Assembly (NCBI GenBank): GCA_963841905.1
Contig: CAWJEM010000022.1
Span: forward strand, 92,835 to 156,834
From: an uncultured Acidobacteriota bacterium
Lineage (GTDB): Bacteria > Acidobacteriota > Vicinamibacteria > Vicinamibacterales > UBA2999
Direction: 5' to 3'
DNA length: 64,000 bases
Positions 51,640 through 53,971 of this stretch are shown piece after piece. How positions within the stretch are numbered: the first letter of the stretch is position 1; the number at the start of each line of letters is the position of its first letter. Both the position numbers and the translations under genes were made by a program. The notes under the pieces are model-generated. The model searched no databases. It was not told where the DNA came from and saw nothing but the letters and a program-made list of their open reading frames with translations.

Positions 51640-53971
51640 CGCGCGGCCTGCGGATCGTCTGCGTCGGCGGCGGGCCGGGAGGTCTTTATTTCGCTCTCTT
51701 GATGAAGCGCGCGGCCCCCCAGAACGACATCTGTGTCGTCGAACGCAACCGTCCTGACGACACGTTCGGTTTCGGCGTGGTGTTTTCGGACGCGACGATG
51801 GCTGGGATTGCCGAGGCGGACACCGAAGCGTTCGCGGCGATCTCGAACGGCCTGGTTCACTGGGACGACATCGCCATTCACCATGGTGGCGAGACGATTG
51901 TCTCAACCGGACACGGTTTCAGCGGCATGAGCCGTCACACGCTGCTGGCGACGCTGCAGCAACAAGCGGCCGCTGCGGGCGTGCGCCTCGAGTTCGAGCG
52001 AGAGATCGACACGCTGGATCAATTCGCCGACGCTGACTTGATCGTGGGCGCCGATGGCGTCAACAGCACCGTTCGGCGACTGCTGGGCGATCGCCTCGAG
52101 ACCACGATCGACCATGGACCGAATCGCTTCGTGTGGCTGGGCACGACGAAGCCGTTTGCCGAGTTCACCTTCTACTTCAAACGGAACGGGCACGGCCTGT
52201 GGCGAGTCCATGCCTATCAGTACGGGCCGAATCGCTCGACGTTCATCGTGGAGTGCCGCGACGAGACCTGGCGTGCGGCCGGGATGCATCGCGCGAGTGA
52301 AGAAGAAACGGCCGCGTTTCTCGAGGCGCTGTTCAGCGAAGAGCTCGCCGGTCATCGGCTGATCACGAACCGTTCTCTGTGGCGCCAGTTTCCGACCGTC
52401 AGCGTGAGACCCTGGTCGAGCGGCAACGTCGTGTTGTTGGGTGATGCGGCGCACACCGCCCACTTCTCCGTCGGTTCCGGCACGCGGATGGCAATGGAGG
52501 ATGCGGTCGCGCTGGTCGAACAGTTAGGGCAGGTAGGGCAGGTAGGGCAGGTAGGGCGGAGTGGGTCGGGTAGGGCAGGTTGGGGAGGCACTGGAGGCGT
52601 ACGAAGCAGCGCGGCGGCCGGCGGTTGAGAGCTTGCAGCGCGCTGCGCAGGCCTCGCTGCAATGGTTTGAAGACACCGAGCGCTACCTGCGGCTGCCCTG
52701 GTTGCAGTTTGCGTTCACGCTGCTGACGCGATCGCTCCGGATCACTCACGAGGATCTGCGAAAGCGCGACCCCGCCTTTCTCGGTCGAGTTGACCGTGCG
52801 GTGTCCGAGGCCGCGACGCGTCAAACGCGACTCGAAGCCCCAGCCGGCAAGACATCTGGGGCAGTGCCGCCACCGATGTTCACCCCGTTCCGGCTCAGAG
52901 ATCTCATCGTGCCGAATCGGATCGTGGTCTCACCGATGTGTCAGTACGTGGCTGACGATGGGACGGTGGGCGACTGGCACATCGTGCATCTTGGCAGTCG
53001 TGCGATTGGCGGCGCGGGGCTCGTGATGGCCGAAATGACCGACGTGAGCCGCGACGCGCGGATCTCCACGGCGTGTGCGGGTCTTTACCAGCCCGAGCAC
53101 GCGGTGGCGTGGCGGCGAGTGGTTGACTTCATTCATCGCGAGACACCCGCCAAGGTCGGCATCCAGTTGGGGCACGCAGGCCGCAAGGGAGCCACGAAAA
53201 AGCTGTGGGAAGGCGACAGCGAACCCATGGACGGTCCCGCATGGCCTCTCCTCTCGCCGTCTCCCATTCCTTATTTCGCCGACCGATCGCCAATTCCGCG
53301 AGAGATGACTCGCGACGACATGAACGTCGTTCGAGAAGACTTCATTCGGGCGACGTATCTTGCGCTCGACGCTGGATTCGATCTCCTCGAAGTACACATG
53401 GCGCACGGATATCTCCTGGCCTCGTTCATCTCACCCCTGACCAACCGCCGAGAGGACGAATATGGTGGCGTGCTGGCCAACCGCATGCGGTTCCCGCTCG
53501 AGATCTTCGCAGCGTGTCGTAAGGTATGGCCGGCGGAGCGACCAATGAGCGTGCGGATCAGCGCGGTCGACTGGGTGCCCGGTGGGCTGGAGCCCGCCGA
53601 CGCCGTCGAGGTGGCGCGACTACTCAAGTCGCGTGGCTGCGACGTCGTGGACGTCTCGGCTGGGCAAACGGTGCCGGAACAGCGTCCACAGGTACGGTCG
53701 ATTGTTCCAGACGCCCTTTGCCGACCGCATCCGGCACGAAGTGGGGATGCCGACGATGGCGGTTGGCAACATCTCGTCCTACATGGACGTCAACACAATC
53801 ATTGCGGCCGGCAGAGCGGACTTGTGTCTGCTCGCGCGCGCGCATTTGTTCGACCCCTACTGGGCACGCCATGCCGCCTACATGCAGGGCTACGTCATAC
53901 CGTGGCCCGATCCGTACAAGTCGGTCGAGCGATATACGCCTCGATTTGAATTCCGTTTCGGGGGAGACTGA
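51636..53971 (+). pseudogene. Bifunctional FAD monooxygenase / Old-Yellow-Enzyme reductase (2-aminobenzoyl-CoA monooxygenase/reductase or salicylyl-CoA 5-hydroxylase type), two frame breaks
   Basis: ORF 51636..52628 gives RIVCVGGGPGGLYFALLMK...[28 protein letters not shown]. ORF 52561..53949 gives [15 protein letters not shown]...IVVSPMCQY...HAGRKG...[31 protein letters not shown] 53582..53971 gives [27 protein letters not shown]...[10 protein letters not shown]. Breaks at about 52566 and 53691. Confidence 0.8.
52524..52585 (+). repeat. Intragenic 9-nt tandem array GGGCAGGTA encoding (G-Q-V)n
   Basis: gggcaggta x3, gggcggagt, gggtcgggta (10 nt), gggcaggtt. Reads [23 protein letters not shown] inside the monooxygenase gene. 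Confidence 0.9.

Follow-up and report, generated by a model that had tools for sequence, protein, structure and literature searches.

The question raised by this locus is whether a short tandem array inside an enzyme gene, lying exactly where the deposited reading frame breaks, belongs to an intact gene or marks a damaged one. We analyzed a 64,000-nt stretch (the window) of contig CAWJEM010000022.1 (C22) in assembly GCA_963841905.1 (G000), the Vicinamibacterales metagenome-assembled genome (MAG) of a soil acidobacterium, of 5.58 Mb in 24 contigs with 63.5% G+C. The gene encodes a fusion of a flavin adenine dinucleotide (FAD) monooxygenase with an Old Yellow Enzyme (OYE) domain, and is of the salicylyl-CoA 5-hydroxylase/anthraniloyl-CoA monooxygenase-reductase type. 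We consider it likely that the array is a coding minisatellite (variable-number tandem repeat, VNTR) kept by slippage in a tolerant loop, and that the frame break is an assembly error.

Tandem Repeats Finder (TRF) reported a period-9 array at positions 52521-52588 (7.4 copies, 81% matches, score 78), and its core at 52527-52581 was read directly as six head-to-tail units. With one degenerate unit on either side, the full order over 52518-52590 is GAACAGTTA, three copies of GGGCAGGTA, GGGCGGAGT, GGGTCGGGTA, GGGCAGGTT and GGGGAGGCA (table 1); the leading GAACAGTTA is missing in the three-unit allele of a close relative (L020, below) in the codon-level comparison. Because three perfect 9-mers stand in a row and shuffled DNA gives few arrays (TRF gave 7 rows for a shuffled 325-kb contig, whereas the real genome has about 164 in the same length), the array is not a product of chance. 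The unit is 9 nt long, that is, three codons, and the array lies in the frame of the 330-aa open reading frame (ORF) at 51636-52628, as in an in-frame coding satellite. Direct reading, TRF, and translation thus bore out the initial annotation, which had described an in-frame 9-nt G-Q-V array in a monooxygenase/reductase gene. Its further claim, that this is the only array in coding DNA, holds for the window, where no other multi-copy array is within a genuine gene; the other window arrays flagged inside ORFs were in over-extended crude ORFs or had only 2-3 copies.

The array is not private to this genome; it is shared and length-polymorphic within the genus, with six units in the window allele and from 2 to 6 across relatives. 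Two loci at about 96% nucleotide identity come from independent assemblies of other samples: L019 (protein P0002) has four units (TTA GGGCAGGTA GGGCAGGTC GGTCGGGTA GAGCAGGTC GGGGAGGCA), and L020 (P0003) has three (GTC GGGCAGGTC GGGCGGGTC GGGCAGGTC GGGGGGGCA). At the protein level, five units were counted in P0122, which is in the same 90%-identity cluster as P0002, and three in P0124, which clusters in the same way with P0004. The nearest genome, G005 (about 95% average nucleotide identity, ANI), has two units; G008 (85% aa identity) has 5-6 units of the GGGCAGGTG type, and G001 (81% aa identity) has about three, all degenerate (LLGRVGQAGLVDAL). In G002 and G007 (78-79% aa identity), codon-level extraction found no array at the site, which is in a basal 75-nt state. 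Pattern scans of a metagenome collection, which did not recover even the JGI record of L020 itself, yielded no further alleles. A G-(Q/R/E)-V array is in frame in all intact orthologues (P0002-P0008, P0122, P0124, G008, and G001), and the distance from the MEDA motif to the YE motif in intact genes is 78, 96, or 114 nt, in exact 18-nt steps. In the 7-kb alignment with L019 and L020 (about 96% identity), no length difference of more than one base occurs outside the array. The valine codon differs by genome, being GTA in the perfect units of the window, GTC in L020, and GTG in G008; the units resemble their neighbors in their own genome more than their orthologous counterparts, which indicates continuing slippage or unequal exchange (concerted evolution). 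The expectation that homologues would have a gap here was therefore only partly realized: distant kin have the gap, whereas close kin (85-96% identity) carry the segment in frame, with 2-6 units.

As deposited, the gene needs three successive frames (51636-52568, 52570-53691, and 53693-53971), the third ending in a stop codon at 53969-53971. Pfam searches with the three pieces found FAD_binding_3 (PF01494) and Oxidored_FMN (PF00724), which form one polypeptide in intact orthologues, and tblastn with the intact 771-aa orthologue P0002 gave three collinear high-scoring segment pairs in frames 3, 1, and 2 with 95.6-96.8% identity. Reading through the pieces recovered thousands of full-length homologues, named anthraniloyl-CoA monooxygenase or bifunctional salicylyl-CoA 5-hydroxylase/oxidoreductase, the named ones coming from Vicinamibacterales/Acidobacteria MAGs. 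The first two window pieces cover positions 1-303 and 310-668 of the NF006101 profile, with 382.8 and 541.8 bits (below the curated cut-off of 1078 bits), and P0002, which at 95-96% identity is the best intact orthologue, scored 1065.7 bits. As the orthologue misses the cut-off only marginally, we class the protein as a close relative of NF006101, a predicted salicylyl-CoA/2-aminobenzoyl-CoA hydroxylase-reductase. It is like that family in its two-domain architecture and full-length profile match, and unlike it in that the intact orthologue scores just under the cut-off.

The array site is a helix-loop-helix junction that is variable throughout the enzyme family. From MEDA to the Y-E-x-x-R-R-P helix, 72 of 118 homologues (61%) have 18-20 residues and the others up to 89; the window has 31. 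Across the array the NF006101 match jumps from position 303 to 310, and positions 304-309 alone are left between the two window pieces. The closest solved relatives, the VioD structures 8gqr (E = 1.6e-48) and 3c4a (2.8e-47), aligned over residues 4-343, have a short loop at this site, 5 residues shorter even than that of the four-unit relative P0002; HMMER places a gap of 5-6 residues there. VioD, an FAD monooxygenase of violacein biosynthesis, aligns with the enzyme through the GDAxH...MA..A..L helix and the next helix; however, its connection is short (LLVKTLSA-DTDPV-AAL) where the enzyme has the repeat, and it has no OYE domain. The AlphaFold model of P0002 is good only in the N-terminal domain (predicted local distance difference test, pLDDT, 80-95; 66 overall); there, helix 282-301 is followed by a break at 302-306 and helix 307-344, and the repeat makes up the end of the first helix, the break, and the start of the second, with a pLDDT dip to 64. 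The initial annotation had put the insertion at about 20 aa. An insertion is supported by the profile jump, the short VioD loop, and the 72 short homologues, but its size was overstated: relative to short-loop homologues, the net insertion is about 12 aa, or four units. We infer that the array sits in a structurally tolerant loop, in which the insert may be tolerated or neutral.

Unrelated inserts were also observed in this loop in other Vicinamibacterales orthologues (P0049, P0061, P0066, P0076, P0105, P0112, P0068, P0015, and P0072). Some peptides recur among such inserts (VGAGFSRP/VVSGFSRT and GLKPGPT), and others are true tandem repeats (PAGALER three times in P0072, and GGSxNA in P0114). 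The inserts resemble repeat or hairpin DNA elements that have been translated, and the loop appears to be a repeated landing site. The family also varies in length at a second site, the inter-domain linker (about 52800-52870 in the window), where aligned homologues have inserts of between 0 and about 40 aa; P0074 has SITQS-type tandem repeats in it, and the second frame break of G005 lies near there.

Arrays of this kind are abundant in the genome. Non-redundant TRF arrays number 1,883, or about 340 per Mb, with a similar density in G005, and the dominant periods were 7 (478 arrays), 8 (277), 9 (221), 13 (161), and 12 (130). When the arrays were classified with a crude codon-usage gene set (4,325 ORFs, 85% coverage), those of period 7 (407 of 478), period 8 (214 of 277), and period 13 (126 of 161) were mostly intergenic; the period-9 arrays were divided into 87 inside genes, 24 at gene edges, and 110 between genes, and periods 12 and 15 were mostly within genes. 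Arrays with a unit length divisible by three (3n) were enriched inside genes relative to intergenic DNA, compared with non-3n arrays, with an odds ratio of about 9 at three stringency levels (p 4e-12 to 9e-71). The array studied here is one of several dozen 3n arrays in genes of this genome. A literature search on tandem repeats in Vicinamibacter and heptanucleotide repeats in Acidobacteria found no papers.

The same unit also occurs outside genes. Intergenic GGGCAGGTN arrays are present at four loci (C16:94248, C24:368766, C10:225762, and C10:296828); the exact canonical unit, ACCTGCCCT/GGGCAGGTA, is found in three of them and in the gene array, and the fourth, C10:225762, came from a BLAST search, and its unit differs by at most 2 mismatches. 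Facing complementary arms occur at three of the four loci (L002, L004, and L005) and are missing at C24:368766 (L003). The gene array shares the GGGCAGGTN unit with these inverted-arm arrays; it differs from them in being translated, in lying within the monooxygenase domain, and in having no facing arm, with 0 inverted pairs found in 52300-52800. The kinship originally suggested with the intergenic GGGCGTA family needs correcting, as the closest intergenic relatives are these 9-nt GGGCAGGTN inverted-arm arrays and not heptamers; derivation from the GGGCGTA heptamers was considered but is an unnecessary link, since the exact 9-nt unit has an intergenic family of its own. GGTGCGACN, the largest 9-nt family, is present in intergenic DNA and also in genes, where both frame and strand vary. 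It is read as (APV)n in a beta-lactamase-NamZ linker and a 2-oxoacid dehydrogenase E2 linker, as (GAT)n in an M28 peptidase, a TrmFO/GIDA domain, and a multihaem cytochrome, and as (SHP)n in a NuoL-type subunit, all six proteins being confirmed by Pfam. That one unit family is read in several frames fits a DNA-driven process filtered by frame and is hard to reconcile with selection for a single peptide. Taken together, the odds ratio, the intergenic GGGCAGGTN arrays, and the multi-frame GGTGCGACN family support the idea, raised when the array was first noted, that a common expansion process acts throughout and that only 3n units survive in genes.

Two of the GGTGCGACN genes have further features. 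In the TrmFO/GIDA gene (G000:C14:86045-88600, minus strand), the (GAT)n array spans 33 aa within the domain, and the ORF continues into tyrosine-recombinase-like sequence, probably via a frame error or a lost stop. In the 2-oxoacid dehydrogenase E2 gene (G000:C11:404224-405573), the linkers hold two different coding arrays, one of (APV)n (aa 91-106) and the other of (APQ/APS)n (about aa 145-185).

As reported at the outset, the frame break of the deposited sequence coincides exactly with the 10-nt unit, where ORF frame 0 (51636-52628) gives way to frame 1 (52561-53949). The window MEDA-to-YE distance is 115 nt, 1 nt beyond the series of intact relatives, and L019 has GGT CGG GTA (G-R-V) where the window has GGGTCGGGTA; one surplus base is therefore located within 52560-52572. 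Because slippage of a 9-nt unit cannot yield a 1-nt excess, a separate single-base indel is needed. Against both L019 and L020, the window has more +1 insertions at 53691 in the same gene, where both relatives read PEQRPQYGRLFQ without interruption, and at 54222 in zwf; against L019, which alone covers the tricorn protease gene, it has two +1 insertions in that gene. By tblastn, these five insertions break three of 15 genes in 22 kb, and all five local breaks are insertions. The fragments of the broken genes have 92.7-96.8% aa identity, except the first tricorn piece (88.7%), compared with 89.1-98.8% in intact neighbors. The comparison of G000 with 400 kb of G005 gave 385 one-base and 29 three-base indels in 206 kb aligned, and clear coding-frame changes were private to G000 in 19 cases and to G005 in 22. 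In tblastn split tests, which replaced a home-made ORF-overlap/change-point frameshift detector that found one of the five known window breaks, 5-14% of G000 orthologues were frame-split (4/74 with G004 queries, 3/50 with G001 queries, and 22/152 with G005 queries); in the reverse direction, the frame-split counts were 9/94 in G004, 2/59 in G001, and 35/165 in G005. Given the local +1 breaks, the G005 indel profile, and the split-test rates, we consider that the surplus base in the array is probably a consensus indel error of the long-read type and not part of the biology of the organism. Indels dominate the error profile of these MAGs, and frame breaks across the set should be treated as suspect.

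Several observations weigh against this conclusion. The rpoB and rpoC genes (8.5 kb) are intact here, and errors are thus not everywhere; a rate of about one break per 6-20 kb would allow for this, and the result is uninformative at the estimated error rate. The three +1 breaks in 1.7 kb are more clustered than a uniform error rate predicts. G005, too, has a frame break where its array begins, which may point to true instability there; of the assemblies tested, however, G005 has the most errors. In addition, the control genomes of the split tests are imperfect too, as the counts for G004 and G001 show. G004 and G005, sister genomes of the genus, are 10% and 21% frame-split, and G004 is a single 5.35-Mb contig that is 91% complete.

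If the frame break were real, the one-base insertion and the second one 1.1 kb downstream would make this gene a decaying pseudogene in the strain. The deposited sequence is consistent with this, as is the public annotation, which divides the gene into products of 330 aa (P0126) and 438 aa (P0123); the two breaks in this gene and one in the next could mean loss of an unneeded operon end, and the G005 copy is also broken. However, the fragments keep 95.6-96.8% aa identity, the same as intact neighbors, with no stops or larger lesions, and the housekeeping-type zwf and tricorn protease genes are broken alike within 22 kb. The uniform +1 direction of the five local breaks argues in the same sense, and the proportion of frame-split genes, which is similar in sister MAGs in both directions, fits consensus errors and not parallel decay; thus, we regard a pseudogene as unlikely. 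An in-gene tandem repeat that coincides with a frame break here, and lies near one in G005, might also suggest phase variation, with slippage at a contingency locus switching the enzyme on and off. This is very improbable: a 9-nt unit is not a frame-shifting unit, and its gain or loss cannot change the frame; intact relatives differ from one another in length by exact multiples of 9; a break takes a one-base indel, which would have to arise in a run of just 3-4 G; and the product is a cytoplasmic catabolic enzyme, neither a surface nor a restriction gene. Breaks at the array tract were seen only in two error-rich MAGs, G000 and G005. Programmed +1 frameshifting was rejected, as three separate +1 breaks occur in 1.7 kb and two genes, and none in relatives.

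Whether the repeat is maintained for its DNA or for its peptide is a separate matter. Protein-level selection could keep a G-x-V repeat, for example as a helix extension tuning domain contacts or oligomerization; the array is in frame and recognizably G-x-V in species down to about 81% identity, substitutions fall on the middle residue (Q/R/E/H/P) and spare Gly and Val, and AlphaFold extends both flanking helices into the array. Nevertheless, genomes at ≥95% ANI have anything from 2 to 6 copies, most family members have no repeat and others have unrelated inserts at the site, the DNA unit is found in non-coding arrays, and other 9-nt units are translated in any frame; retained Gly and Val would also follow from a retained DNA unit. 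We therefore doubt that such selection is the explanation. That the array itself is a spurious expansion made by an error-prone assembly is the least credible possibility, because at least seven independent assemblies from other samples (L019, L020, G005, G008, G001, P0122, and P0124) share both the repeat unit and the codon at which the array lies.

The preferred reading, a coding minisatellite with an assembly error in it, suggests the following course. The G-rich 9-nt unit would have been amplified by replication slippage or unequal recombination, presumably slippage, where two helices of the FAD-monooxygenase domain meet in a tolerant junction, and would have inserted G-(Q/R/E)-V tripeptides there. 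Gain or loss of a three-codon unit would leave the frame unchanged; because the frame is never altered, the array could persist and drift between 2 and 6 units among close Vicinamibacterales while the enzyme stays intact. In this genome, arrays of non-3n units are almost confined to intergenic DNA. The sense strand of the array has eight GGG tracts with loops of 1-6 nt, a G-quadruplex (G4) motif (≥4 G3 tracts, loops 1-7 nt) occurs at 52527-52585 as one of five regex matches in the window, and G4-aware RNAfold predicted two quadruplexes (-19.1 vs. -10.4 kcal/mol). Such a quadruplex-prone structure could favor polymerase stalling and slippage, and could locally degrade the long-read consensus.

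More tentatively, we proposed that a lineage-wide, DNA-level repeat generator seeds 9-nt arrays into coding DNA regardless of frame, a proposal that we hold to be nearly, though not quite, evenly balanced. The generator may also be the source of the intergenic 7-, 8-, 9-, and 13-nt arrays, and G4- or hairpin-prone units may help it; under this proposal GGGCAGGTN would be read as (GQV)n here, and the other family as (GAT)n, (APV)n, and (SHP)n. If true, it would give this lineage an engine of its own for rapid change in the length of loops and linkers, in proteins that are otherwise conserved.

Table 1. Positions of the array units, the host gene, and the frame breaks in the window
Feature	Position	Strand	Detail	Evidence
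Fused FAD-monooxygenase (PF01494) and OYE (PF00724) gene	51636..53971	+		Pfam, NF006101, tblastn
Degenerate leading unit GAACAGTTA	52518..52526	+	E-Q-L	Codon-level comparison of window, L019, and L020
Array core	52527..52581	+	G-Q-V/G-R-S type triplets	Direct reading, TRF, translation
GGGCAGGTA x3	52527-52553	+	Perfect consecutive 9-mers	
GGGCGGAGT unit	52554-52562	+		
GGGTCGGGTA unit	52563..52572	+	10 nt with one surplus base; frame 0 to frame 1	
GGGCAGGTT unit	52573-52581	+		
Degenerate trailing unit GGGGAGGCA	52582..52590	+	G-E-A; first part of conserved helix	
Second surplus G	53691..53692	+	CAGGTAC vs. CAGTAC in relatives; frame 1 to frame 2	Insertion vs. L019 and L020
zwf (glucose-6-phosphate dehydrogenase)	53976-55467		Break at 54222, surplus A	CACGAATGC vs. 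CACGATGC in L019 and L020
Tricorn protease	42718-46037		1108 aa over three frames; breaks at 43442 and 44062	+1 vs. L019

The gene is the last of an operon with creatininase-RidA, enoyl-CoA hydratase, and acyl-CoA dehydrogenase genes; the operon adjoins a divergent AMP-forming ligase gene, and zwf and gnd come after the gene. In zwf, the N-terminal 82 aa, with the IFGASGDLT motif, are in another frame than the remainder. The tricorn protease gene also has a -1/+1 pair at 42839/42877 that compensates itself. L020 encodes one 327-aa rubrerythrin/VIT1 protein at the place of window positions 56597-57426, and the window is without one G at about 56950; its ferritin-like and VIT1 gene pair is probably another single-base assembly indel.

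For annotation, the gene is to be read as one intact bifunctional aryl-CoA hydroxylase/reductase and not as two fragments, and the frame breaks of this assembly, such as those in zwf and the tricorn protease gene within 22 kb, are not to be taken for pseudogenes. For biology, the locus illustrates how a repeat-rich genome admits only 3n units to its genes and how a tolerant enzyme loop turns length-polymorphic. It could serve as a strain marker (2-6 units at ≥95% ANI) and as a natural series for the effects of loop length on a flavoenzyme.

The persistence of 3n repeats alone in genes is an established principle (Subirana and Messeguer 2019, PMC6749651; PMC1574311), and the locus opens no new mechanism; it is an ordinary but clean example. 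Selection on simple sequence repeats (SSRs) in coding regions has been described (PMC3315296), and in Burkholderia mallei indels of 7- and 8-nt coding SSRs cause frameshifts (PMC1574311). Like the known prokaryotic coding 3n satellites (PMC6749651; PMC3315296; PMC1574311), the array is within an ORF, in frame, and polymorphic between close strains; it differs in lying in a loop of the catalytic domain of a cytoplasmic flavoenzyme and not in a surface protein or linker. The array density of the genome is unusually high, about 340 per Mb with our own TRF settings; in the set of PMC6749651, just 18 bacterial species surpass 4 satellites per Mb, the two definitions being different. G4-forming heptamer arrays, under-represented in coding regions, are known as GGGAATC in Xanthomonas and GGGGAYT in Nostoc (Rehm et al. 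2015, PMC4692102). The unit described here is similarly G-rich, with one GGG tract; in contrast to those repeats, it is 9 nt long instead of 7 and is translated.

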